Part shown: positions 42,773 through 63,005 of the stretch, piece after piece
Numbering within the stretch: the stretch's first letter is position 1
Layout: the number at the start of each line of letters is the position of its first letter
Virus record (IMG/VR): IMGVR_UViG_3300042937_001707
Coordinates: 1-64,000 of that record
DNA length: 64,000 bases
Origin: a virus
Reading direction: 5' to 3' (one strand)
Notes under the pieces: generated by a model
Databases searched by the model: none
What the model was told of the DNA's origin: nothing
The model's input: only the letters and a program-made list of their open reading frames with translations
Made by a program: the position numbers and the translations under genes

Positions 42773-43777
42773 GTGGCGAACACAGTAATTCAATTAAAGA
42801 AATCTATAGTACCTGGAAATGTTCCTAGTAGTTTAGAAAGCGGCGAAATAGCGATTAATACCGCTGACGGTATTTTATTCTATAAAGATCCTTCTAATGT
42901 TATAAGAACCGTAAGAACAGATACCACAACAAACGCATATTCTGTTCTAAATGTAAATTCTTCATTATTAATTGCAACATCCAATTCTGATATTTTATCT
43001 ATAGACTCTACGGGAGCAATAACATTAACTCCAGATTCTGTTAATGATAAATTTACTATTGGAGTAAAATCCGGAACAGTTTTTGAAGAGGGTGTTGTTC
43101 AATTATACGATGGAGTTGATTCGAATTCTATTGTGTTAGTAGCAACAGCAAACGCATTAAACGCTGTCTATAACTTAGCAAATTTAGCATTTAACAGTTC
43201 TGGATCTGGTCCTACATCAACAAACTTAGCGTATCAAGAATTCACAGCCGCAAATAATCAAACAGAATTTTCCATTACAAATGGATATAATATAGGTAAA
43301 ATTAAAGTATTTGTAAATGGTGTACTTTTAAATTCTTCCGACTATACGGCAACAAATGGAACATCTATAATATTATCGTCTCCAGCACCTTTAGGTGACG
43401 ACGTTTCAATACAAAAATGGTATAACGATGTAAATGTTGCAAATTCTTATAGTTTAATATATGGAAATATTGATTCGAATAATATAATAACTACGACAAA
43501 TAGCGCAAATCAAGTATTGGATTTATTTTCAACCGCGTTATATAGATCCGTGAAATATCAAATACAAGTCACAAGTTCGACAAGTTATCAAATAAGTGAA
43601 TTATTGTTGATTCATGATGGAACCACTTCTTATATTACAGAATATGGTTTAATTACAACAAATGGCGTATTAATGAGTTATGATACAGACGTTTCCGGAG
43701 GATCTGTGAGATTATTGATATCTCCTACCAACAATAGCAATAGTATTAAATTCACAAAAACCTCAATTGTAGTATAA
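42773..43777 (+). CDS. Virion fibre-connector protein
   Basis: GTG start; IQLKKS...P..L..GEIAIN N-domain; VFVNGV.L...DY module; C-terminal YRS.KY.IQ...IHDG....EYG domain. Confidence 0.65.
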   Translation: MANTVIQLKKSIVPGNVPSSLESGEIAINTADGILFYKDPSNVIRTVRTDTTTNAYSVLNVNSSLLIATSNSDILSIDSTGAITLTPDSVNDKFTIGVKSGTVFEEGVVQLYDGVDSNSIVLVATANALNAVYNLANLAFNSSGSGPTSTNLAYQEFTAANNQTEFSITNGYNIGKIKVFVNGVLLNSSDYTATNGTSIILSSPAPLGDDVSIQKWYNDVNVANSYSLIYGNIDSNNIITTTNSANQVLDLFSTALYRSVKYQIQVTSSTSYQISELLLIHDGTTSYITEYGLITTNGVLMSYDTDVSGGSVRLLISPTNNSNSIKFTKTSIVV

Positions 43778-50251: not shown

Positions 50252-50989
50252 GTGAGTTTGGGTCACGGAGCAAGTATTGTTACTAATGGATTAGTTTTAT
50301 GTTTAGATGCTGCTAATCCAAAAAGTTATCCTGGATCAGGTGCTGTTTGGTATGATTTGAGTGGAAATGGTAATCACGCTTCTTTAGTAAATGGACCAGT
50401 TTATTCTACAGAAAATAATGGCAAATTTGTATTAGACGGAATAAATGATTATGTAGAAACGATTAATCCTCTAAATTTATCAACAACCAATGCGGTAACA
50501 GTTTTATTTTCAGTAAAAGTATTATCCTATGGGACTTCTCCAAAAGTTCTATATGAATTAGGTCCAAATTTTAACAGTTATACCGATTGTTTTGTAGCAT
50601 CATTTTCTGATAATTCTGTTGGAGCGAATTATGATATTTTTGCTAGTGTTAGAGGAAATGTTGGATATAATATAGGAGTATATTCTAAAACTTTATTAAA
50701 CGATTCCAATTGGCATTCTAATATTATAATACACGACACTTCACAAACTTCCAAAGAAAATCTTATATACAGCAACGGTGTTATAAAAGACGAAATATCT
50801 AACCCCCTTTCTGGATATGCTAATAATACTAATAATTTCGGTAACAGAAAATTTTATATAGGTTGTAGGGGAGGAGCTAGTTTGTTTGGCAATATTGAAA
50901 TATCGAGTGTTATGGCGTATAACAGAGCATTATCCGCAGCAGAAATTCAACAAAATTTTAACGCTTCTCGCAATCGCTTCGGGATATAA
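50252..50989 (+). CDS. LamG/concanavalin-like lectin domain protein
   Basis: IVT.GLVL.LDAAN..SYPGSG..W.DLSGN, DG.NDY and YNRALS..EI.QNFNA motifs. Confidence 0.75.
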   Translation: MSLGHGASIVTNGLVLCLDAANPKSYPGSGAVWYDLSGNGNHASLVNGPVYSTENNGKFVLDGINDYVETINPLNLSTTNAVTVLFSVKVLSYGTSPKVLYELGPNFNSYTDCFVASFSDNSVGANYDIFASVRGNVGYNIGVYSKTLLNDSNWHSNIIIHDTSQTSKENLIYSNGVIKDEISNPLSGYANNTNNFGNRKFYIGCRGGASLFGNIEISSVMAYNRALSAAEIQQNFNASRNRFGI

Positions 50990-50992
50990 ATA
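50985..50992 (+). promoter_or_regulatory. Late promoter heading the collagen/modification operon
   Basis: TATAAATA 30 nt upstream of ATG 51023; downstream genes abut or overlap through 60998. Confidence 0.7.
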
Positions 50993-51022
50993 GTTAAATA
51001 ACAACTCCTTAGAGAATACCAA

Positions 51023-51643
51023 ATGGCATTAAACGAACAAAATATAGTAATTCAACCTAATGTTGGTATAGCAAATACTAACCCAAAAATTACGTTTTCC
51101 GCAGCAGACGCATCAACAAATGCTAAGAATATTGTTCTTAATGTATACCCAACTTCAAACGGAACACTTTCTTTTGAAGGTAACGCCGGACAATTATTCT
51201 CTATCACAGACTCAATGTCTGGAACAATATTCTCTGTTAATGATATTTCTGGTATTCCTTCTATAGAAGTTTTAGACACTGGATTAGTAAAACTTGCCCA
51301 ATATTCTGGCGACGTTCAAATCGGACCTTCTACAGTTTTAATTTCGGAAAATTATACTACCACAACCACAAATCAAATTACACTAGACAGCTTTCCCGCA
51401 GCAACATATAGAACAGCAACTTATGAAGTGCAAATGACTTCATCTACAAATTATCATACAATAACACTAAAACTAATACATAACGGCACAACAGTTTATC
51501 TCGCTCAATATGGAGAAATATTCACAAATGCTTCTCTAGGAACATTTGATGCTACAATTACTTCCGGTAATATGAATTTATTATTTACTCCAACCAATGC
51601 TACTACCGTAGTAAAATTAACAAGACAACTAATCTTGGTATAA
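51023..51643 (+). CDS. Virion fibre-connector protein
   Basis: LSFEG.AGQLFS.TD...G.IFSVND.SG.P motif; C-terminal YR.A.Y.VQ...IHNG....QYG domain shared with 42773..43777. Confidence 0.65.
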   Translation: MALNEQNIVIQPNVGIANTNPKITFSAADASTNAKNIVLNVYPTSNGTLSFEGNAGQLFSITDSMSGTIFSVNDISGIPSIEVLDTGLVKLAQYSGDVQIGPSTVLISENYTTTTTNQITLDSFPAATYRTATYEVQMTSSTNYHTITLKLIHNGTTVYLAQYGEIFTNASLGTFDATITSGNMNLLFTPTNATTVVKLTRQLILV

Positions 51644-51644
51644 A

Positions 51645-53333
51645 ATGGCAACAAATAAACCCTTTGAAATAAAAAACGGATTAATTGTTGGGGATACTCT
51701 TGTCGCAAATTCAACTGGTCATTGGGTAGGTCCATCAACAAATATAACCGGAGATCAAGGATTTCAAGGAAATATTGGGATAACTGGAAATGTTGGATTT
51801 ACTGGAATAGCAGGATTCCAAGGTAGACAAGGAGTACAAGGTTCTACTGGTCCTCAAGGCGTACAAGGTGCTTTGGGTGCTACTGGTAATATTGGAGTTC
51901 AGGGTGCTATCGGAATAGCAGGATTTCAAGGTAGGCAGGGCGTTCAAGGTTCTACTGGTCCTCAAGGCGTACAAGGCGTGGTTGGTGCTACTGGAAATGC
52001 TGGAGTTCAGGGCGCTATCGGAATATCAGGATTTCAAGGTAGACAAGGAATACAAGGTTCTACTGGTCCTCAAGGCGTTCAGGGAGCAGTTGGTGCTACT
52101 GGAAATAGTGGAATAGCAGGATTCCAAGGCAGACAAGGGTTTCAAGGCACACAAGGTCCACAGGGACCACAAGGAGTTCAGGGAGCAGTTGGTGCTACTG
52201 GTAATGCTGGTGTGCAAGGTGCTATTGGAATAGCAGGATTTCAAGGTAGACAAGGAATACAAGGTTCTACTGGACCACAAGGAGCACAAGGCGCTGTAGG
52301 TGCTACTGGTAATGTTGGTGTGCAAGGTGCTATTGGAATAGCAGGATTTCAAGGCAGACAAGGGTTTCAAGGTTCTACTGGTCCACAAGGAGCACAAGGC
52401 GCTGTAGGTGCTACTGGTAATGCTGGAATAGCAGGATTTCAAGGAAGACAAGGATTCCAAGGCGCACAAGGACCACAAGGACCACAAGGCGTTCAAGGCG
52501 CTGTTGGTGCTACTGGTAATACTGGAGTTCAGGGTGCTATTGGAATAGCAGGATTCCAAGGTAGACAAGGAGTCCAAGGTCCACAGGGACCACAAGGTGT
52601 ACAAGGTGCTGTTGGCGCTACTGGACCGCAAGGAGTTCAAGGGACAGTTGGAATAGCAGGATTTCAAGGTAGACAAGGAGTCCAAGGTCCACAGGGACCA
52701 CAAGGCGTACAGGGAGCAGTTGGCGCCACTGGTCCTCAAGGGGTTGCTGGAATAGCAGGATTCCAAGGCAGACAAGGATTCCAAGGCGCACAAGGTCCGC
52801 AAGGAGCACAAGGAGCACAAGGCGCTGTAGGTGCTACTGGTCCTCAAGGAGTTGCTGGAATAGCAGGATTCCAAGGCAGACAAGGATTCCAAGGAGCAAA
52901 TTTAATAATTCCTGCCAATAATCTTAGTACATTAGGAGTAAATGCTGCACTTGGCGGAACTGGAGAAATACGAGCATCTGGAAATATCATAGCAGCATAC
53001 TCAGATCAAAGATTAAAGAAAAATATAAACAAAATTGAAAATTGTTTAGAAAAAGTATTAAGTATAAGTGGAATTTATTTTACTCAAAATAAGTTAGCAG
53101 AAAAGTTTGGATATAACGATTATAGTAAAAAAATAGGATTGATAGCACAGCAAATAAAACCTTTTGCTCCTGAAATAGTTAAACCTGCTCCTTTTGATAC
53201 GGATTCCGATGGAAATAGCATTTCTGGGGAAAATTACATAACAGTACAATATGAAAAATTAATTCCAATAATAGTAGAAGCTATAAAAGAACAACAAAAG
53301 CAAATTAAAGAACTTTTAACATTAAGAAACTAA
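51645..53333 (+). CDS. Collagen-like fibre protein 1 with S74 chaperone domain
   Basis: 128 uninterrupted Gly-X-Y triplets (51750-52901); AYSDQRLK...IGLIAQ...APFD...YEKL.P...EAIKE. Confidence 0.9.
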
Positions 53334-53337
53334 TCAG

Positions 53338-55047
53338 ATGGCAGAACAATCTAAACTAATAATAAAAAATGGATTAGTTGTTGGAAATACTTCAGTTATT
53401 TCCAACAATTCTGTTTGGATTGCTTCTACAACGAACATAAAAGGTCCGCAAGGACCACAAGGATTTCAAGGCGTTCAAGGATTCCAAGGACCACAAGGAG
53501 CACAAGGACCACAAGGGTCTCAAGGAATTGCGGGAGTTACAGGACCACAAGGCATACAAGGGGTTGTTGGTAGACAAGGGTTCCAAGGTCCACAAGGATT
53601 TCAAGGAGCGCAAGGACCACAGGGAGCACAAGGTGCTGTCGGTGCTACTGGACCCCAAGGAGTTCAAGGCGCTGCAAGTTCTATTGCAGGGTTCCAAGGT
53701 CCACAAGGGTTTCAAGGCGCTCAAGGTCCACAAGGTGCACAAGGTGCTGTCGGTGCTACTGGTCCACAAGGAGTTCAAGGAGCAATCGGCGTAACAGGAG
53801 TCCAAGGAGTCCAAGGTCCACAGGGACCACAAGGTGCACAAGGTGCAGTTGGTGCTACTGGACCACATGGAGTTCAAGGAGCAGTTGGCATATCTGGATT
53901 CCAAGGTAGACAAGGAGTCCAAGGAGCGCAAGGACCACAGGGAGCACAAGGTGCTGTCGGTGCTACTGGACCCCAAGGAGTTCAAGGCGCTGCAAGTTCT
54001 ATTGCAGGATTTCAAGGCAGACAAGGGTTTCAAGGCGCACAAGGTCCACAGGGCGCACAAGGAGCAGTTGGTATTACTGGTCCTCAAGGAGTTCAAGGAG
54101 CAATCGGCGTAACAGGAGTCCAAGGAGTCCAAGGTCCACAGGGACCACAAGGTGCACAAGGTGCAGTTGGCGTTACTGGACCACAAGGAGTTCAAGGTGC
54201 TGCAAGTTCTATTGCAGGATTTCAAGGCAGACAAGGGTTTCAAGGCGCACAAGGTCCACAGGGCGCACAAGGAGCAGTTGGCGTTACTGGACCACAAGGA
54301 GTTCAAGGCGCTGCAAGTTCTATTGCAGGATTTCAAGGCAGACAAGGAGTCCAAGGTCCACAAGGTCCACAGGGCGCACAAGGAGCAGTTGGCGTTACTG
54401 GACCACAAGGAGTTCAAGGTGCTGCAAGTTCTATTGCAGGATTTCAAGGCAGACAAGGAGTCCAAGGTCCACAGGGACCACAAGGTGCACAAGGTGCAGT
54501 TGGCGTTACTGGACCACAAGGAGTTCAAGGAGCAGTTGGAATAGCAGGATTCCAAGGTAGACAAGGAGTCCAAGGTCCACAAGGTCCGCAGGGCGTTCAA
54601 GGGATATCTAATGTTTTGCAAACATCAGTAACTGCGTTAGGAGTTGGAACCCCAGCAGGACCAACAGGAGAAATAAGAGCAACCGGAAACATAACTTCGT
54701 ATTATTCTGACATAAGGTTAAAAGATAATATAGAATCTATAAAAAATGCTAGTGAAAAATTATATCAATTAAATGGAATTTTTTATAAACAAAATAAGTT
54801 TGCAGAAACCTTTGGATATAAAGATTATAGCAAACAAATAGGAGTTATAGCACAAGAAGTTCAAAAAATTATACCAGAAGCTGTTGCATTAGCACCATTT
54901 GATATTGATGAAAATCACAATAGCATCACAGGTTTAAATTTATTAACGGTTAATTATGAAAAATTAATTCCATTAATAATAGAAACTATAAAAGAACAAC
55001 AAAAAGAAATAGATTTATTAATAAAAGAAATAAAATATGGCAGCTAA
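53338..55047 (+). CDS. Collagen-like fibre protein 2 with S74 chaperone domain
   Basis: Gly-X-Y domain 53443-54609 with 5 GAASSIAG interruptions; YYSDIRLK motif. Confidence 0.9.
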
Positions 55048-56719
55048 TAATAATTTCGTTGTAAAAAATGGCATATCTATAAATCTAAATGAAATAATTT
55101 CATCAGAAGGCATTTGGACTGGTCCCGCTTCAAGCTATTCCGGATCACAAGGACCACAAGGAGCACAAGGACCACAAGGCGCTCAGGGTGCTGTGGGTGC
55201 TGCTGGTCCACAAGGAGTTCAAGGAGTAGAAGGATTCCAAGGTCCACAAGGATTTCAAGGCGCTCAAGGTCCACAAGGTCCACAGGGAGCACAAGGCGCA
55301 GTTGGTGCTACTGGTCCACAAGGCATACAAGGGGTGGCAGGGTTCCAAGGTCCACAAGGATTCCAAGGCGCTCAAGGTCCACAAGGTCCACAAGGCGCTC
55401 AAGGCGCAGTTGGTGCTATTGGACCACAGGGCATTCAAGGGGTAGCAGGATTTCAAGGTCCACAAGGATTTCAAGGCGCTCAAGGCGCTCAGGGTGCTGT
55501 CGGTGCTACTGGTCCTCAAGGAGTACAAGGTGCTGCAAGTTCGATTGCGGGGTTCCAAGGTCCACAAGGATTCCAAGGCGCTCAAGGTCAACAAGGACCA
55601 CAAGGCGCTCAAGGCGCAGTTGGTGCTATTGGACCACAGGGCATTCAAGGGGTAGCAGGATTTCAAGGTCCACAAGGATTTCAAGGAGCGCAAGGTCCAC
55701 AAGGTCCACAAGGCGCTCAAGGGGCAGTTGGCGTTACCGGACCACAAGGAGTTCAAGGGGTGGCAGGGTTCCAAGGTCCACAAGGATTTCAAGGTGCTCA
55801 AGGCGCTCAGGGTGCTGTCGGTGCTACTGGTCCTCAAGGAGTACAAGGTGCTGCAAGTTCGATTGCGGGGTTCCAAGGTAGACAAGGATTTCAAGGCGCT
55901 CAAGGTCCACAAGGACCACAAGGCGCTCAAGGCGCTGTAGGTGCTACTGGTCCTCAAGGAGTTGCTGGAATAGCAGGATTCCAAGGTAGACAAGGATTCC
56001 AAGGCGCTCAAGGTCCACAGGGCGCTCAAGGAGCACAAGGCGCTGTAGGTGCTACTGGTCCTCAAGGAGTTGCTGGAATAGCAGGATTCCAAGGTAGGCA
56101 AGGATTCCAAGGCGCTCAAGGTCCACAGGGAGCACAGGGGGCAGTTGGTGTTACTGGACCGCAAGGAGTTCAAGGAGCGGCTAGTTCAATTGCAGGATTT
56201 CAAGGCAGACAAGGAGTTCAAGGTCCACAGGGTCCACAGGGAGCACAGGGGGCAGTTGGTGCTACTGGTCCTCAAGGAGTACAAGGAGCGGCTAGCAATG
56301 TGGTAACTGAAGTTACAGCACTAGGAGTTAATACTATAGCAGGAACAACAGGAGAAATAAGAGCAACTGGACAAATTACTGCATATTATTCTGATAAAAG
56401 ATTAAAACAAGTTTTAGGAAATGTTGACAATTGTTTAGAAAAGATAAGTAAAATACATGGTGTATATTACGAACAAAACGAATTAGCTAATTCATTTGGA
56501 TATAAAGACTCTTCAAGACAAATAGGATTTATAGCACAAGAAATACAAGAAGTGCTACCAGAAGCAGTAAAAATTGCCCCTTTTGATTCTAATAAATATG
56601 GACATAGTATTTCTGGAGAAAAATATTTAACCGTACTATACTCAAAAATAGTACCGTTATTAATAGAAGCATTAAAAGAACAGAAAATACAGATAGATGA
56701 ACTAAAAACAAAAAATTGA
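55037..56719 (+). CDS. Collagen-like fibre protein 3 with S74 chaperone domain
   Basis: Gly-X-Y domain 55142-56293 with 3 interruptions; YYSDKRLK motif. Confidence 0.9.
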
Positions 56720-56727
56720 GGAATATT

Positions 56728-57300
56728 ATGAAAGGTGAATGGTGTTATTTTAAATCATATTTTGATAAAGATACTTGCGAAAAAATAATCAGAGATGTTC
56801 AATCCATTCCATCACAAGATGCTCTTGTTGGTAATATCGATGCTTTCGCTGATTATAAAAATAGAAGAAGTAAAATAAAATTTATTCATAGTTCAAATTG
56901 GAGATTTGCGTATATATTTGATGCATTATGGAAAGCAGCAATAAGTGCAAATAATGATTTTTTTGACATACACATTACTAGATTAAATTTCATTCAATTC
57001 GCAGAATATAGTCACGAAGACCAAGGAGAATATAAAAACCATCACGACGTTTTTTGGTTAAACAATGATCCCGTTTATCATAGAAAACTTTCTTGTGTAA
57101 TCCAACTATCAGACTCTACTGAATATGAAGGTGGAGATTTTGAGTTAGTAGATGTATCAACATATCCTGATGCTTCTGAGATTAGGCAACAAGGATCGAC
57201 TATATTTTTTCCTTCATTTTTTACACATAGAGCAAATCCAGTAATAAGAGGAACTAGATATAGTATTGCTGCATGGTTTGAAGGTCCGAAATGGAGATAA
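56728..57300 (+). CDS. 2OG-Fe(II) oxygenase (prolyl-hydroxylase/PKHD-like)
   Basis: HHD...RKLS..IQLS...YEGG...FPSF..H...PV..GTRYS...W; start moved to ATG 56728 behind GAGGA. Confidence 0.88.
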   Translation: MKGEWCYFKSYFDKDTCEKIIRDVQSIPSQDALVGNIDAFADYKNRRSKIKFIHSSNWRFAYIFDALWKAAISANNDFFDIHITRLNFIQFAEYSHEDQGEYKNHHDVFWLNNDPVYHRKLSCVIQLSDSTEYEGGDFELVDVSTYPDASEIRQQGSTIFFPSFFTHRANPVIRGTRYSIAAWFEGPKWR

Positions 57301-57301
57301 T

Positions 57302-58024
57302 ATGCACCCAACCATACATTATAATGAACCGTTTGATTACTACATTATAGATGATTTTTTAGAACCATCTATCGCAAAAAAGATATCAGAAGAATTTATC
57401 CCATTTGAATCCACACATTGGTTCGATTATAATAATCCATTAGAAATAAAAAAAACTTTAAACAATTGGTATCATTTTCCAGAAACCACTTATAAGTTTT
57501 TTTCTTATCTAAATTCAAAAGAATTCGTAGAAATAATTCAAAATATAACAAAAACAAATAATCTATATACTGATATCGGATTACATGGTGCTGGCTGGCA
57601 CATTCATGGTAACGGTGGGAAATTGAATGTACATCTAGATTATTCAATTCACCCAAAATTAAAATTACAAAGAAAATATAATTTTATAATATATCTATCA
57701 CAGGAATGGAATCCAAAATGGGGAGGTAATTTAGAATTTTGGTCACACGATTTTCTAAACAAAAAACCAAAAGAAAAAATTGCCCAAGTGGATTGTATAT
57801 TCAATAGAGCAGTAATTTTTGACACTACCAAAAATTCTTGGCATGGGTTTAACGATCCCATAACTTGCCCAAATAATACATATAGAAAAAGTATTGCTTG
57901 TTATTACCTAACTGACCCAGAAGAAATCACAGAGGAACGATACAGAGCATTATATTCAGCATCAAAATCTCAAGAGAATGATAGAAACATTGAACAATTG
58001 ATTAAAAATAGAAGTAAACTATGA
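57302..58024 (+). CDS. 2OG-Fe(II) oxygenase (proline-hydroxylase-like)
   Basis: L.VHLD, IYL...W...WGG.LE.W, FNRAVIF, SWHG and RKS motifs. Confidence 0.85.
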   Translation: MHPTIHYNEPFDYYIIDDFLEPSIAKKISEEFIPFESTHWFDYNNPLEIKKTLNNWYHFPETTYKFFSYLNSKEFVEIIQNITKTNNLYTDIGLHGAGWHIHGNGGKLNVHLDYSIHPKLKLQRKYNFIIYLSQEWNPKWGGNLEFWSHDFLNKKPKEKIAQVDCIFNRAVIFDTTKNSWHGFNDPITCPNNTYRKSIACYYLTDPEEITEERYRALYSASKSQENDRNIEQLIKNRSKL

Positions 58025-59739
58025 ATAAAAAATGTAAAATTGTTATGATTACCATGTTTAAGAATGAAGCAAGATCCATAGAAAGAATGCTAAATTCTTG
58101 TTTACCTTTTGTAGATTACTATGTTCTTCAGAACAACGGATCGACAGACGGTTCCGATCAAATAGTAAAAGATTTCTTGATTAATAACGAGTTATCCGGA
58201 ACTTTATATGATGTAGAAGAAGGTTGGGTTGGATTTGGATGGAATAGAGATCATTTAATTCAAACATGTCAAGATATTGATCATGGATGTGATTGGATTT
58301 TAAAGATGGATTGCGACGAAGTTCTAGAAATTGACAGCAATTTTAATTGGGAGTTGTTAAGTGATAAATCTACCCAAGCATTTCATATTCCTGCAGTAAG
58401 TGGAACTTGTGTATATTATAGAGCATGGATGTGGAACGCAAACCTTCCTTGGAGATTTAATCACGATACTTGCCACGAAACAATATATTGCGAAATTCCG
58501 GAAATAGATAAAAACTTTGTGTGTAAAGACTTACCAAAATCTTTTAGACAAGTAGGATATAACGAAGGACAAAGTTGGTCGGTTCCTACAAAATTTATTT
58601 CAGACTCTTTAATCTTAGAAGAAAAAATGATTAAAGAAAACACAATACATTCCGATATATACCATTTTTGGTATATAGGCAAAAGTTATGCAGATGCTTA
58701 TCCATCAACAGCATTTCCTCTGGGAAAAACGCAGCAGAAAGAATATGCAAGAAGATGTATTTACTATTTTACTGAATATTTAAATTTAATACATGATTTT
58801 GAAAATACGAAAAAAGCAAAATTTATAGACGAAACTTCTTACATGTCACTAATTTTAATGGCAGAGGCATATATATTCTTAAATAAAGAAGACAACGCAA
58901 TAGAGTGTTATATTCTTGCAGAATCTTTTGCTCCAAAAAGAAATGATCATCTTTTTGGATTAGCAAGAATTTATAAACGTTTGAAGCAATATGAAGAAAT
59001 GTTACAAATCACTTCTGTAATGATTAACCCAGAAAGAAAAAACCCTTTCCCAGAATATTGTAATTTTATAGATTCTTCTTTATATATCAATGAAGAAAAT
59101 AATGTCGTAGAAGAACTTCATAATTTTGCATTATCACATAATACAAAAGAACAACATATTCCATTACCATTTTATATAAATTTAAATAAAGATAAAAATT
59201 TATTTGTAGTTGATAATTTTTATACCAATCCAGATGATGTCAGAGATTTTGCATTAAATTTTGTTGAATATAAAGAAGATTTAAATTGGTATAAAGGGTT
59301 AAGATCTACAGTAACATATAGACCAGATGGTATAAAAGAAGCATTTGAAGAAATAATAGGAAAAAAGATTTATAATTTCGAAGAACACGGATTTAATGGA
59401 GTTTTTCAGATAACAAGCGCAAAAGATCCCCAAGTATATCATTATGATGCACAAAAATGGGCAGCAATGATATATTTAACCCCAAATTCTCCGCTAGAAA
59501 GCGGAACAAGAACCCATAGATCCAAATTAAACGGAACAAAACACGCATCAGAACCAAACGTTGATTTTGCATTTAATGGCAATTTCTATGACAGCACTAA
59601 ATTTGAAATTATTGATAATGTGGGGAATATATACAATAGATTAGTAATAATGGATGCTCAAAATATCCATTCTGCTGGTCCATATTTTGGCTCTGCTATT
59701 CATGATAGTAGATTAACTCATTTATTTTTCTTCGATTAA
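58021..59739 (+). CDS. GT2 glycosyltransferase + TPR-like region + C-terminal 2OG-Fe(II) dioxygenase-like domain fusion
   Basis: M.KNE...I.R.L.S, GSTDG, F...R, DCDE and HE motifs; helical middle; VVDNFY.NPD.VR, HYD, YNRL, H and RL..LFFFD. Confidence 0.8.
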   Translation: MNKKCKIVMITMFKNEARSIERMLNSCLPFVDYYVLQNNGSTDGSDQIVKDFLINNELSGTLYDVEEGWVGFGWNRDHLIQTCQDIDHGCDWILKMDCDEVLEIDSNFNWELLSDKSTQAFHIPAVSGTCVYYRAWMWNANLPWRFNHDTCHETIYCEIPEIDKNFVCKDLPKSFRQVGYNEGQSWSVPTKFISDSLILEEKMIKENTIHSDIYHFWYIGKSYADAYPSTAFPLGKTQQKEYARRCIYYFTEYLNLIHDFENTKKAKFIDETSYMSLILMAEAYIFLNKEDNAIECYILAESFAPKRNDHLFGLARIYKRLKQYEEMLQITSVMINPERKNPFPEYCNFIDSSLYINEENNVVEELHNFALSHNTKEQHIPLPFYINLNKDKNLFVVDNFYTNPDDVRDFALNFVEYKEDLNWYKGLRSTVTYRPDGIKEAFEEIIGKKIYNFEEHGFNGVFQITSAKDPQVYHYDAQKWAAMIYLTPNSPLESGTRTHRSKLNGTKHASEPNVDFAFNGNFYDSTKFEIIDNVGNIYNRLVIMDAQNIHSAGPYFGSAIHDSRLTHLFFFD

Positions 59740-59741
59740 TT

Positions 59742-60998
59742 ATGAAATTTAGCATTATAACCCCAGAACATAATAAAAATAATCCGTATTTGATGGAATT
59801 GTTCGAATCCATAGAAAACCAAACTTATGAAAATTGGGAATGGGTAATATTATTAAATAATGGTTGCGAATTCGAAGACCTTCCAGAACAAATTTTATAC
59901 CATGATAAAGTAAATGTATACAAACTAGAAGAAACCAATTCAAATATTGGATTTATAAAAAATAAAGCATTTCATCTTGGGTCCGGAGATGTTTTAGTAG
60001 AAGTTGATCATGATGATATATTAATAAAAAATTGTTTAGAAAAATTATACGAAGTATATCAAGATGAAAACATGGGATTCGTATATAGCGATAATGCCGT
60101 CTTACATATGACCGATGAATTTTCCCCATATGACGCAAATCAAGGGTGGGAATATTCTATTTATAATTGGAAAGGTCGAGATTTAATTTCTATGAAAAGT
60201 TTCGAACCATCTTCTCAAAGTTTAGGTTATATTTGGTATGCTCCAGATCATGTCAGATCTTGGAGGTCTAATGTCTATAAAGAAATTGGAGGACACAATC
60301 CAGAATTATCAGTATGCGATGATCATGAATTATGTATTAGAACATATCTACACACTAAAATGAAAAGAATTCCGGAAGTTCTTTATATCTATAGAATTAC
60401 CGGGGAAAATACTTGGTTGGAAAGAAATCAAGAAATACAACAAAAAACAATAGAATTATTCAATAATTATATTCAACTTTTAGCAGAAAAAGATTGCGAA
60501 GAAAAAGGATTATTGAAAATTGATTTGGGAGGGGGTTTAAATCCGTATAAAGATTATAAAACCGTTGATATCACAGAATCTGCGGATTTTCAATACGATT
60601 TAAATGAAGGGATACCGTTACCAGATAATAGCGTAGGAGTTATCAATGCCAGTCATATATTAGAACATTTAAAAGATCCTATCAAATCTATGAGCGAAAT
60701 TCATAGGGTGTTATGTCATGGTGGATGGGCTTTTATAGAAATTCCAAGCACGGATGGAAGAGGAGCATTCCAAGACCCCACACATGTAAGTTTCTGGAAC
60801 GAAAATAGTTTTTTATATTATACCGATAAATATCTTGCTAATTTTATAAATAATAAATATATAAGATTTCAAGAATATTATAAACAAACATATTTTCCAA
60901 ATGAATGGTTACAACAAATAAATGTTTGTGTTACTTCCGCATATTTAACAGTTATTAAAGACGATTCTATCCGATACCCCGGATTTTTAAAAATATAA
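59742..60998 (+). CDS. GT2 glycosyltransferase + class I SAM methyltransferase fusion
   Basis: FSIITP, SI..QTY.NWEW, EVDHDD, VYSD, GG....DD.EL; DLGGG, DL..GIP..DNSV, H.LEH, EI.RVL..GG and AFQDPTH. Confidence 0.85.
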   Translation: MKFSIITPEHNKNNPYLMELFESIENQTYENWEWVILLNNGCEFEDLPEQILYHDKVNVYKLEETNSNIGFIKNKAFHLGSGDVLVEVDHDDILIKNCLEKLYEVYQDENMGFVYSDNAVLHMTDEFSPYDANQGWEYSIYNWKGRDLISMKSFEPSSQSLGYIWYAPDHVRSWRSNVYKEIGGHNPELSVCDDHELCIRTYLHTKMKRIPEVLYIYRITGENTWLERNQEIQQKTIELFNNYIQLLAEKDCEEKGLLKIDLGGGLNPYKDYKTVDITESADFQYDLNEGIPLPDNSVGVINASHILEHLKDPIKSMSEIHRVLCHGGWAFIEIPSTDGRGAFQDPTHVSFWNENSFLYYTDKYLANFINNKYIRFQEYYKQTYFPNEWLQQINVCVTSAYLTVIKDDSIRYPGFLKI

Positions 60999-61001
60999 AT
61001 A
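60994..61001 (+). promoter_or_regulatory. T4-type late promoter
   Basis: TATAAATA overlapping the upstream stop, 28 nt before ATG 61030. Confidence 0.65.
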
Positions 61002-61029: not shown

Positions 61030-61479
61030 ATGCCAAAATACAATCAATCAAACGTTTCAGGAGAATTGTGGAGAAGATCTCCTCAAATAATTTGTTATAA
61101 TAATTATAATCAAAATCCAGTAATACTTTTTGATGAAGAAGATATAATAGTATTGAATAATGGAGAATTTGCATCCAATAGAATCCAGTCAAAATTACAT
61201 CAAGAATTTAATTCTGATAACGCTAATACTGCATTTGAGTTGAGAAACCCGGAAACAGAAGAATATATAGGAACATTTGCAACATACAAAGATTTATACG
61301 TATTAATGTATTCTTTATATTTTCATTTGGCAAAGGAGAGAGACAAAGGACCACAACCATATCCAAGTTGGATATGGAACGACCAAACTAATTCGTGGGA
61401 TGCTCCTATCCCAAAACCGGAAGATGGACAAGAATATTATTGGGATGAAAGTTCTCAAGAATGGGTTATCGTTGCATAA
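61030..61479 (+). CDS. Hypothetical tail-associated protein with C-terminal PQPYPSW..W.AP..P...Y.WDE...W module
   Basis: Clean ORF; Trp/Pro motif common next to glycine-rich phage tail proteins. Confidence 0.6.
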   Translation: MPKYNQSNVSGELWRRSPQIICYNNYNQNPVILFDEEDIIVLNNGEFASNRIQSKLHQEFNSDNANTAFELRNPETEEYIGTFATYKDLYVLMYSLYFHLAKERDKGPQPYPSWIWNDQTNSWDAPIPKPEDGQEYYWDESSQEWVIVA

Positions 61480-61491
61480 GGAGAACTCATC

Positions 61492-62445
61492 ATGACAATG
61501 GTAGCGAGTGGATATATTGAATTAGGTCCAAACGCAGCAGCAGCTACACCAAACACCTCAATTGGAACAGAGTTAAAAAGAACTGCATATGCGTCAACAA
61601 ACTTAACAGAAACAGATTGTAGATATTTAGGTGGAATCAACACAGGACAAATAGGGTTTTCTAATTTTTATTCAAAATATGTGATACAAGGACAAACTTT
61701 TGCAACTAGCACCAGTGGAAATTGGACAGTGCCAACAGGAGTTTATTATGTCAGCATATTATGTATTGGCGCTGGCGGCGGAGGTGCAGCGCTTTCTGGA
61801 AGCACCACTTATTCTGGAGGCGGAGGTGCATTATCATATACAAATAACATACCAGTAACACCAGGAGAAGTTTTATCATATGTTGCAGCACCTATAACCG
61901 CAAGACAAGCGCAAGGAGGAACGTCTTCTGTTTCTAGGGGGGCAACTGTTCTTGTAAGTGCTGCTGGAGGAAGCCAATATGCAACAGGAGGTCAAGCTTC
62001 TGCTGGAGTTGGATCTGTTAAATATTCTGGAGGAAATGGGAATTCTTATACAGGTATAGGATCTGCTGGCGGTGGAGGTGCAGCCGGATATTCTGGAGTT
62101 GGAGGAACCGGAGGAAACCCATCCACACAAGCGGGAACTGCTGGATCTGGAGGAGGTGGCGGAGGTGGCGGAGGGTCGTCTTCATTCAGTACTGGTGGAG
62201 GCGGAGGAGGAGTAGGGAATATCGGAGAAGGACCAAGTGGTGCTGCTAGTGGGACAAACGGAGGAGCAGGAAAGGGCGGTTCCTATGGAACAGATGGAGT
62301 TGGTGGATTTCTTTTAGGTGGTGCTGGTGGAGGATATGGTGGAGGCGGTGGAAGTGATACAACAGGAACCGGTGGTGCTGGTCTGGTAAGGTTTATGTGG
62401 GGAGTAAACAGATATTACCCATCAACAAATACTGGAGTATTATAA
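61492..62445 (+). CDS. Glycine-rich virion/tail protein
   Basis: SG.WTVP.GV..VS.LCIGAGGGG, V.PG and long Gly-rich tracts. Confidence 0.75.
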   Translation: MTMVASGYIELGPNAAAATPNTSIGTELKRTAYASTNLTETDCRYLGGINTGQIGFSNFYSKYVIQGQTFATSTSGNWTVPTGVYYVSILCIGAGGGGAALSGSTTYSGGGGALSYTNNIPVTPGEVLSYVAAPITARQAQGGTSSVSRGATVLVSAAGGSQYATGGQASAGVGSVKYSGGNGNSYTGIGSAGGGGAAGYSGVGGTGGNPSTQAGTAGSGGGGGGGGGSSSFSTGGGGGGVGNIGEGPSGAASGTNGGAGKGGSYGTDGVGGFLLGGAGGGYGGGGGSDTTGTGGAGLVRFMWGVNRYYPSTNTGVL

Positions 62446-62695: not shown

Positions 62696-63005
62696 ATACT
62701 CATATAAAATAACAAAATTTAACATAAATCCAGATTCTAAACAACTAACTTCTGTTGAGTGGTGGTATGTCGGTAAAGAAAACGATTGTAAATATGAAAT
62801 TTATAACGTAACGCAATTAGACGTCAAAGGGAAAAAGTTTATTCCCCTAGAAAATTTACAAGAAAAAGAAGTAATTAAATTCATTGAAAGTTCTTTAGAC
62901 AAAGAATATATTAAATCAATGAAAGAAGTTATTACAATGGAAATCGATAAACAAAAAACTCCAGAAACAGTATCAATAACACCACCTTGGATAGAAAATG
63001 TCTAA
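62688..63005 (+). CDS. Small tail-fibre-associated protein
   Basis: V.W.Y.G, FIP.E.L....VI.FI and PPW motifs; likely start ATG 62688. Confidence 0.6.
   Translation: MIKYSYKITKFNINPDSKQLTSVEWWYVGKENDCKYEIYNVTQLDVKGKKFIPLENLQEKEVIKFIESSLDKEYIKSMKEVITMEIDKQKTPETVSITPPWIENV

Follow-up and report, generated by a model that had tools for sequence, protein, structure and literature searches.

A candidate collagen-maturation module encoded by a T4-like myovirus from freshwater

We analysed a window of 64,000 nucleotides, the first 64 kb of the 79-kb IMG/VR virus record IMGVR_UViG_3300042937_001707, and in it a compact run of genes at 51023–60998 that encodes three collagen-like fibre chains together with four putative modifying enzymes. 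We propose that this run belongs to the host-recognition region of a T4-like myovirus from freshwater, that it is a fibre module expressed late, and that it constitutes a phage-encoded pathway for collagen maturation. We put the probability of this reading at about 0.6. It has comparative support from related phages; the chemistry of each step, the residues that accept the modifications and the succession of the steps are inferred. Its best-supported part is the first oxygenase, ox1, a candidate collagen prolyl hydroxylase by its sequence and its genomic company. Its least defined part is the chemistry of the second oxygenase, ox2, and of the two glycosyltransferases.

The phage is assigned to the T4-like myoviruses by its baseplate cap, wedge and related genes. 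The nearest cultured relatives of its gp6-like wedge protein, with ~36–38% identity, are found in Pelagibacter phage HTVC008M and cyanomyophages. The module is located inside the structural region, with baseplate genes upstream and neck and sheath homologues downstream. A total of 20 metagenome runs of lake water or freshwater, which come from 20 studies (2016–2024) and include no RNA run, contain sequence near-identical to 51000–60990 (84–92% of sampled words). Thus, the phage is common in lakes.

Gene content and layout of the module

The features of the module are the following (aa, amino acids; GT, glycosyltransferase; SAM, S-adenosylmethionine):

50985–50992, + strand: late-promoter-like motif TATAAATA of the T4 type, an exact match, 31 bases upstream of the first gene
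51023–51643, + strand: fibre-associated adaptor, 206 aa, characterised by its ESM Atlas neighbours
51645–53333, + strand: collagen fibre chain A, 562 aa, 128 uninterrupted Gly-X-Y triplets and an S74 chaperone; predicted autocleavage at Ser453 (53001–53003)
53338–55047, + strand: collagen fibre chain B, 569 aa, 123 triplets interrupted five times by SSIA, and an S74 chaperone; predicted autocleavage at Ser457 (54706–54708)
55037–56719, + strand: collagen fibre chain C, 560 aa, 124 triplets interrupted three times by SSIA, and an S74 chaperone; predicted autocleavage at Ser452 (56390–56392)
56728–57300, + strand: ox1, a 190-aa 2-oxoglutarate (2OG)-Fe(II) oxygenase of the prolyl 4-hydroxylase (P4H)/PKHD type; likely start ATG 56728, alternative TTG 56716
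57302–58024, + strand: ox2, a ~240-aa 2OG-Fe(II) oxygenase related to the OGFOD1/Tpa1 type; alternative start of the open reading frame (ORF) at 57266
58021–59739, + strand: three-domain fusion, 572 aa, with a GT2 domain, a TPR-like helical domain and a C-terminal DUF6445 oxygenase domain (Pfam, AlphaFold2 model)
59742–60998, + strand: protein that joins a GT2 glycosyltransferase to a class I SAM methyltransferase (PF00535 and PF08241), here called GT2-methyltransferase
60994–61001, + strand: next late-promoter-like motif TATAAATA, which shares bases with the stop codon of the last enzyme gene and stands before the gene at 61030

An earlier reading of this DNA, made from the sequence only, had described abutting or overlapping genes between late promoters at 50985 and 60994, and both the ORFs and the motif TATAAATA are found at these positions. 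Nine ORFs were counted on the + strand of 51023–60998, eight of which are listed above; they abut or overlap, with junctions of 1–4 bases where they do not overlap, and GGAG-type ribosome sites precede ox1 and ox2. The promoters themselves are less certain. The motif occurs 17 times in the window (13.8 expected) and is not over-represented in comparison to shuffled sequences. Its + strand copies mostly lie just upstream of gene starts, and an extra copy lies inside the last enzyme gene at 60845. Due to the lack of enrichment and to this internal copy, we infer the promoter function at 50985 from where the motif lies and from what is known of T4-like phages. The operon would plausibly be read as a single late transcript.

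The claim of three Gly-X-Y fibre genes held: all three chains match the Pfam family Collagen (PF01391) with E-values of 1e-53 to 1e-62. They share a layout of a 35-aa N-terminal domain, 384–389 aa of Gly-X-Y repeats, a linker of ~33 aa and a C-terminal Peptidase_S74 domain (PF13884; 38–53 bits, cut-off 22). Glutamine (Gln) occupies 56–72% of the Y positions, and threonine (Thr) is found at Y in 8–18 triplets per chain. Across 25 sequences, comprising the three chains and relatives, the residues S, D, R and K of the Ser-Lys dyad motif S-D-x-R-x-K do not vary. Self-cleavage by S74, as predicted from this motif, would leave almost pure collagen chains.

The 206-aa product of the first gene matches no Pfam family; in the ESM Atlas, phage proteins with an Mtd_N domain are its structural neighbours (TM 0.65). 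Over its C-terminal ~120 aa it is a paralogue of the C-terminal part of a 334-aa protein encoded at 42773–43777 (BLASTP, 39% identity, E 4e-24). Both genes sit just upstream of fibre genes, and the adaptor gene also precedes collagen genes in many related loci. The shared domain would suit a fibre-anchoring adaptor that is present twice. We consider "adaptor" a reasonable working name, while the label "connector" used in the sequence-only reading is unproven.

The same reading had named two 2OG-Fe(II) oxygenases with intact motifs, a GT2-TPR-dioxygenase fusion and a GT2-methyltransferase, and Pfam domains together with invariant catalytic residues bear this out. Ox1 matches PF13640 (2OG-FeII_Oxy_3), and ox2 matches PF13640 and PF13661. 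Across 27–43 relatives, ox1, ox2 and the DUF6445 domain all keep the motif HxD...H...R without change; in ox1 it is formed by H105-x-D107, H167 and R177. In profile searches against the Protein Data Bank (PDB), ox1 retrieved PKHD-type hydroxylases first (2e-8), followed by P3H1 (5e-3, a weak match) and P4Hs. Ox2 retrieved the ribosomal prolyl hydroxylase OGFOD1 with 4e-12 over nearly the whole length of ox2.

PF00535 (Glycos_transf_2) was found in the fusion and in the GT2-methyltransferase with 26 and 43.7 bits (cut-off 23.3), and their DxD motifs, DCDE in the fusion and DHDD in the GT2-methyltransferase, are invariant among relatives. The fusion also matches Pfam TPR, with further hits to TPR profiles, and DUF6445 (PF20043; 27.5 bits, cut-off 24). 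Its AlphaFold2 model (pLDDT 89) has a GT-A fold. With the GT-A and helical part as query, Foldseek returned SunS/ThuS (E 2e-14 over ~390 columns) and then LH3, AspH and P3H1, and the sole solved GT2 relative by sequence profile is the flagellin O-GlcNAc transferase GmaR (2.7e-6). The DUF6445 domain, modelled alone (pLDDT 92), forms a double-stranded beta-helix that is nearest to PKHD-type enzymes, PHD2 and OGFOD1; its sequence profile gave no match in the PDB, and the domain is placed by fold search only. All three oxygenase domains group with enzymes of the prolyl-hydroxylase type. The GT2-methyltransferase matches Methyltransf_11 (PF08241; 35.8 bits, cut-off 21.2) with an invariant GxGxG SAM motif (G263, G265), and its PDB profile matches are generic GT2 enzymes (chondroitin synthase, TarS, GalT1). 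The fold and profile matches of ox1, ox2 and the fusion point to protein substrates.

Association of the enzymes with collagen and its residues

Collagen genes are common in these phages, and co-occurrence at the genome level was therefore left out as evidence. Instead, IMG/VR loci were gathered via the fusion enzyme, via ox2 (best 80 of 438 loci) and separately via the S74 domain alone (best 80 of >535 fibre loci), the last set being a control unbiased for the enzymes. The order adaptor, three collagens, ox1, ox2, GT2-TPR-oxygenase fusion and GT2-methyltransferase recurs on >20 distinct IMG/VR contigs with 55–70% protein identity. Shared ancestry alone could explain this conservation. In the control set, an ox1-like gene lies within 10 kb of only 1 of 53 S74-seeded fibres without collagen, and the other enzymes of the set lie near none of the 53. 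Beside the 19 S74-seeded fibres with collagen we found ox1-like genes in 10 cases, DUF6445 in 5, GT2-methyltransferase in 4 and PLOD-like genes in 4. The link of ox1-like genes to collagen in this set is significant (Fisher test, p 1.6e-6).

Ox1 goes with proline (Pro). The median Pro content per collagen triplet is 0.35 at the 28 loci with ox1 and 0.04 at the 13 loci without it (p 5e-6). Several of the latter have hundreds of triplets with essentially no Pro, and ox1-bearing relatives often have Pro at Y (median 0.07). In newly collected S74-seeded loci an ox1-like ORF lies directly downstream of all 6 Pro-containing collagens and of none of the 7 Pro-poor ones, and such ORFs immediately follow collagen ORFs in several different fibre architectures. 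Across 74 pooled distinct loci, with relatedness ignored, ox1 is associated with Pro (p 3e-8) and not with lysine (Lys) or Gln. On the tree of the GT2-methyltransferase, the presence of ox1 changed at least 8 times. Of six independent pairs, 4–6 are concordant for ox1 and Pro and none is opposite, in a test that is underpowered (median p 0.06) and to this extent counts against our proposal. The S74-domain tree, with 3 supported pairs, is too poorly resolved to allow such a comparison.

The link between ox1 and Pro bears on the view that the oxygenases are auxiliary metabolic or regulatory genes, which hydroxylate host ribosomal proteins or translation factors or serve a link between 2-oxoglutarate and nitrogen, and that the glycosyltransferases are unrelated neighbours. 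Such a role is suggested by the best solved relative of ox2, the ribosomal prolyl hydroxylase OGFOD1, and by ox1-like genes that occur by the hundred in cyanophages, often at non-structural sites, e.g. beside uvsW. An Ofd1-like oxygenase without known role has been found in a cyanophage virion preparation (PMC12801897), and a Baltic Sea study called the role of an abundant viral P4H "auxiliary metabolic gene" cryptic (PMC9301287). However, the uvsW-linked genes are only 28–33% identical to ox1, and the closest homologue of ox1 in an isolate (43%, Synechococcus phage S-CAM9) lies behind a collagen-bearing tail fibre. An auxiliary role also leaves unexplained why ox1 follows Pro and why an oxygenase is fused to a GT2-TPR enzyme. 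We therefore consider it very improbable.

Other phages have collagens with Lys at Y (7–37% of triplets), and here the collagen genes are followed by a different, three-part fusion, namely in L199/L237, L239 and L176, which are metagenomic T4-like contigs, in the cultured phage S-CAM9 and in CRP-6, an unrelated 45-kb Roseobacter phage. The parts of this fusion match COLGALT1 (~1e-12), the GT domain of LH3 (4e-25) and the hydroxylase of LH3 and mimivirus L230 (up to 1.5e-28). In the 74 pooled loci mentioned above, the PLOD-like enzyme is associated with Lys at Y (p 2e-7) and not with Pro. In L239 and CRP-6 the collagens contain Lys and hardly any Pro, and an ox1-like gene is missing; Lys and Pro occur together in L237 and S-CAM9, and so do the two enzymes. 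In L199, L237 and L239 the enzyme genes are found in the same slot as in the window, between the collagen fibres and a homologue of the gene at 62998. As a single-protein query, the L199 enzyme reached only close relatives and L239. Judged by their sequences, true homologues of LH3 and COLGALT1 probably serve Lys-bearing fibre collagens in these phages. The co-occurrence of enzymes and collagen across phages, which the sequence-only reading had left as a check, is thus positive and residue-specific, both in the S74-seeded control and in the associations with Pro and Lys.

Among cultured phages, a ~610-aa fusion of GT25 (COLGALT1-like) and PLOD-GT domains occurs in S-CAM9 (L091, NC_031922: 27.4–36.3 kb), CRP-6 (L242, gp58–gp60), S-PRM1 and S-8S53/55/56. 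It is annotated as "hypothetical protein" and adjoins a tail fibre with Lys at Y in 26–37% of triplets. In S-CAM9, two 2OG oxygenases lie between the tail fibre and this fusion.

The enzymes could also act more broadly and hydroxylate and glycosylate virion proteins of any kind, or some other protein of a fibre or the capsid, and not specifically the three collagens. Their position in a late structural operon and their protein-type folds would suit such a role. The cassette of ox2, fusion and GT2-methyltransferase is sometimes found beside other large fibre genes or far from collagen, and the window encodes many other giant structural proteins besides the collagen chains. Glycosylation of virion proteins by phage enzymes is known as well, in that it was reported for the capsid and tail tube of mycobacteriophages (Freeman et al. 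2023, as cited in PMC12801897). Nevertheless, we hold this explanation for quite unlikely due to the near absence of the enzymes beside S74 fibres without collagen repeats, the match between enzyme type and collagen residues, and the location of ox1-like ORFs right behind collagen ORFs in several fibre architectures.

For the window we hypothesize that collagen maturation would proceed as follows. The same transcript would give rise to three collagen-like chains and to soluble cytoplasmic enzymes that modify these chains before folding. Ox1 would hydroxylate Pro on the unfolded chains, here the X-position Pro of Gly-Pro-Gln. The fusion may then grip the chain via its helical domain, hydroxylate a residue and attach the first sugar, and the GT2-methyltransferase may add a further sugar and methylate it. 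Finally, the S74 chaperones would trimerise, nucleate the triple helix and self-cleave at the conserved Ser-Lys dyad. With the usual rise per residue of collagen, the outcome would be a fibre of ~110 nm that consists almost purely of decorated collagen. The role of ox2 and the location of the fibre on the virion are likewise conjectural. Helix stability, protease shielding and adhesion, which the sequence-only reading offered as purposes, remain guesses.

Points against the proposal and a possible host-glycan role

Several observations, to which the underpowered pair test belongs, weigh against a collagen-maturation pathway in this phage. A first group concerns the collagens themselves. Pro occurs at the X position only, as Gly-Pro-Gln, and at Y in 0 of 375 triplets, so that X-Pro-Gly, the canonical site of collagen P4H, is absent. 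Lys is found nowhere in the three collagen regions, so that sites for lysyl hydroxylase are missing, too. The sequence-only reading had taken the collagens of animals and mimivirus as precedent; the sites that are modified there do not exist in the window. Because both canonical sites are lacking, ox1 would need to act on Pro at the X position, which is a guess. A literature search turned up no substrate for the PiuC/YbiX-type enzymes, which are the nearest solved relatives of ox1.

A second group of observations concerns the cassette of ox2, fusion and GT2-methyltransferase. It occurs without adjacent collagen in L095, L122, L114, L131, L066 and L071, and in L095 and L122 there is no collagen within 10 kb. 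The distance to the nearest collagen gene is ~7 kb in G009, a complete record of 180 kb, and ~37 kb in G010, and the fragments G003 and G004 have the cassette and no collagen. In S-CRM01 a GT2-methyltransferase homologue lies ~50 kb from the collagen genes of that phage. An ox2 homologue (52% identity) is part of a sugar-nucleotide/glycan island in a 149-kb record without a collagen match. The three enzymes are also retained beside (Gly-Ala/Val-Gln)n collagens that are nearly free of Pro, Thr, Ser and Lys. Gln at Y is higher where ox2, fusion and GT2-methyltransferase are present (0.50 vs 0.09), a difference that is confounded by how the loci were collected. The claim that the operon decorates its own collagen therefore stands in part: the comparative co-occurrence and the protein-type folds agree with it, and the cassettes without adjacent collagen (L095, L122, L066, L071) do not. 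The 149-kb AG-345-L05 record is a weaker counter-example than its lack of a collagen match suggests, because its virus is spread across several records and a PLOD-like gene lies in one of them.

Cassettes without adjacent collagen genes would be expected if the enzymes remodelled a glycan of the host envelope, such as the O-chain of lipopolysaccharide (LPS), the capsule or the S-layer, for instance to block superinfection, and if their adjacency to fibres merely reflected a hot spot of accessory genes. A host-glycan role has been published as the interpretation of the glycosyltransferases that pelagimyophages carry in their host-recognition cluster (PMC7029224), and this precedent has to be added to the points against our proposal. 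In line with it, the GT2-methyltransferase resembles polysaccharide GT2 enzymes, and the island is variable and can hold sugar-nucleotide enzymes, a sulfotransferase and APS-kinase-like genes. However, all four enzymes lack membrane segments, and genes for a flippase, polymerase, ligase or priming transferase are missing from the operon. Expression from a late-promoter-like motif among structural neighbours would come late for superinfection exclusion, and the fusion resembles peptide glycosyltransferases and protein hydroxylases. Remodelling of host glycans also leaves unexplained the link of ox1 to Pro, that of the PLOD-like enzyme to Lys, and the dearth of the enzymes beside collagen-free fibres. 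On balance, we regard it as unlikely and prefer collagen maturation.

Relation to known systems and further observations

A close parallel to the proposed pathway is formed by LH3/PLOD3 and COLGALT1 of animals and by mimivirus L230, in which, as proposed for the window, a hydroxylase–glycosyltransferase fusion is encoded with collagen chains or acts on them before folding. True homologues of these enzymes exist in other phages, and those of L199, L237 and L239 occupy the genomic slot of the module. The window itself is not a member of this system because the defining domains and the Lys sites were looked for and are missing: its enzymes lack GT25, PLOD-GT (PF25342) and LH-type domains in Pfam searches, and its collagens lack Lys. 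In its fusion, a PHD/OGFOD1-like oxygenase domain is combined with GT2 and TPR domains instead. By analogy, the window appears to work like the LH3/L230 system with different parts.

In SunS/ThuS and Listeria GmaR, as in the fusion, the GT-A (GT2) domain precedes a TPR-like helical domain for the binding of peptide or protein substrates. The identity is ~12–15%, the known enzymes lack a C-terminal oxygenase domain, and their acceptors, a bacteriocin Cys for SunS/ThuS and flagellin Ser/Thr for GmaR, are unrelated to collagen. The oxygenases of the window have the PF13640-type fold and HxD...H...R in common with collagen P4H, P3H1, the P4Hs of chloroviruses and Bacillus anthracis, PHD2 and OGFOD1/Tpa1, and P3H1 and AspH pair TPRs with an oxygenase as the fusion does. 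In contrast to canonical collagen P4H systems, the window collagens have no X-Pro-Gly site.

BclA of Bacillus anthracis is an exosporium collagen with Thr-linked glycans that contain methylated sugars. BclA and mycobacteriophage virions are comparable to what we propose in that a filament or virion protein is glycosylated in the cytoplasm by dedicated glycosyltransferases, with methylation of the sugar, and the window collagens contain Gly-X-Thr triplets as BclA does. The enzymes belong to other families than those of the window and no hydroxylases take part; the likeness is probably one of analogy. Fibres of the endosialidase type share with the three chains an S74 domain above the Pfam cut-off and the invariant S-D-x-R-x-K dyad. 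Unlike S74 fibres with a triple beta-helix, the chaperone of the window would, from its sequence context, fold a collagen triple helix, and in contrast to the endosialidase type almost no non-collagen distal domain would remain after cleavage.

The host-recognition cluster described for pelagimyophages and cyanomyophages (Zaragoza-Solas et al. 2020, PMC7029224) is a region of the same type, located between baseplate/VrlC and neck genes, and like the window it holds tail fibres, collagen-repeat proteins and glycosyltransferases. The baseplate protein of the window is ~38% identical to that of HTVC008M. In that study the glycosyltransferases were read as host LPS enzymes, and neither they nor oxygenases were linked to collagen fibres. 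A 2022 review describes hydroxylation and glycosylation of collagen as an animal trait, found among viruses only in mimivirus, and prokaryotic collagens as mostly unmodified homotrimers (PMC8968730). Our literature search found no paper that links these enzymes to phage collagen fibres. If our proposal is correct, many so-called metabolic or LPS genes of aquatic phages would be virion-maturation genes, the glycans of phage fibres could affect host range, decay and grazing, and compact enzyme sets from the bacterial cytoplasm would be at hand for hydroxylated and glycosylated recombinant collagen.

We further speculate, and this broader idea is doubtful, that tailed phages have interchangeable toolkits for collagen maturation, a P4H-like one for Pro and an LH3/COLGALT1-like one for Lys, that the clade of the window has in addition an undescribed pair of GT2-TPR-oxygenase and GT2-methyltransferase for Gln-rich (Gly-X-Gln)n collagens, which possibly acts on a residue not known to be modified in any collagen, and that the chains A, B and C, matched in length and diverged, may form a heterotrimer. 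If true, the A-B-C assembly would be the first heterotrimeric collagen outside animals.

The three collagen paralogues are near-equal in triplet count within each phage (usually within 2–9%), while counts between phages span 58–202 (within-phage matching r 0.99, permutation p < 5e-5). The loci compared were 51645–56719 of the window and L009, L011, L012, L025, L026, L031, L035, L045, L047, L048, L068 and L073, and triplet counts were used since some gene starts are not ATG. Recent gene conversion was ruled out as the cause of the matching, as the paralogues are only 67–76% identical in DNA. Such matching would agree with an A-B-C heterotrimer, or with fibres that have to be equally long; the unequal numbers of interruptions (0, 5 and 3) argue somewhat against a heterotrimer in register. 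Elsewhere (L108:627–8999, L127:2706–7769, L103, L101), collagen-like ORFs of up to 490 triplets consist almost only of Gly-Ala-Gln and Gly-Val-Gln, with 0–4% Pro and hardly any Thr, Ser or Lys.

The fusion takes several forms in relatives. Its GT2-TPR and DUF6445 parts are separate ORFs in L075–L088, L099, L102–L106 and L112–L146, and some relatives with a split fusion carry a second DUF6445-like ORF before ox2. An N-terminal Methyltransf_24 extension is present in L012, L018, L023, L027, L032, L057 and L058 (774–834 aa) and in L039 (1002 aa). The domains thus seem to be shuffled as modules. A 585-aa protein of the giant virus Satyrvirus sp. from the mimivirus group (BFVD A0A3G5AE29) has the same GT2–helical–oxygenase layout (Foldseek E 2e-42, 22% identity), and UniProt lists a "procollagen-lysine 5-dioxygenase" from an uncultured Caudovirales phage. 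Enlarged enzyme islands were found at L027:4272–8700, L059:1–5714 and L090 (MH319754, 11–20 kb). They contain extra GT2s, a sulfotransferase, adenosine phosphosulfate (APS) kinase/cytidylyltransferase-like genes, NAD-epimerases, GDP-mannose dehydratase, a GT11 fucosyltransferase and an aminotransferase, and amount to a variable island for sugar synthesis and decoration.

IMG/VR labels the record as "provirus", which is at odds with a T4-like lytic genome. A near-identity DNA search of a phage collection with the enzyme region gave no match. Downstream of the module, 61492–62445 encodes a 317-aa protein that matches no family in Pfam or NCBIfam; its C-terminal half is extremely Gly-rich, with runs of 8–9 Gly, and is not a Gly-X-Y collagen. 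Directly upstream of the module, 50252–50989 encodes a 245-aa protein with a Laminin_G_3/concanavalin-A-like lectin fold, whose gene stops at the late-promoter-like motif. This protein may bind carbohydrates as part of a fibre or of the baseplate.

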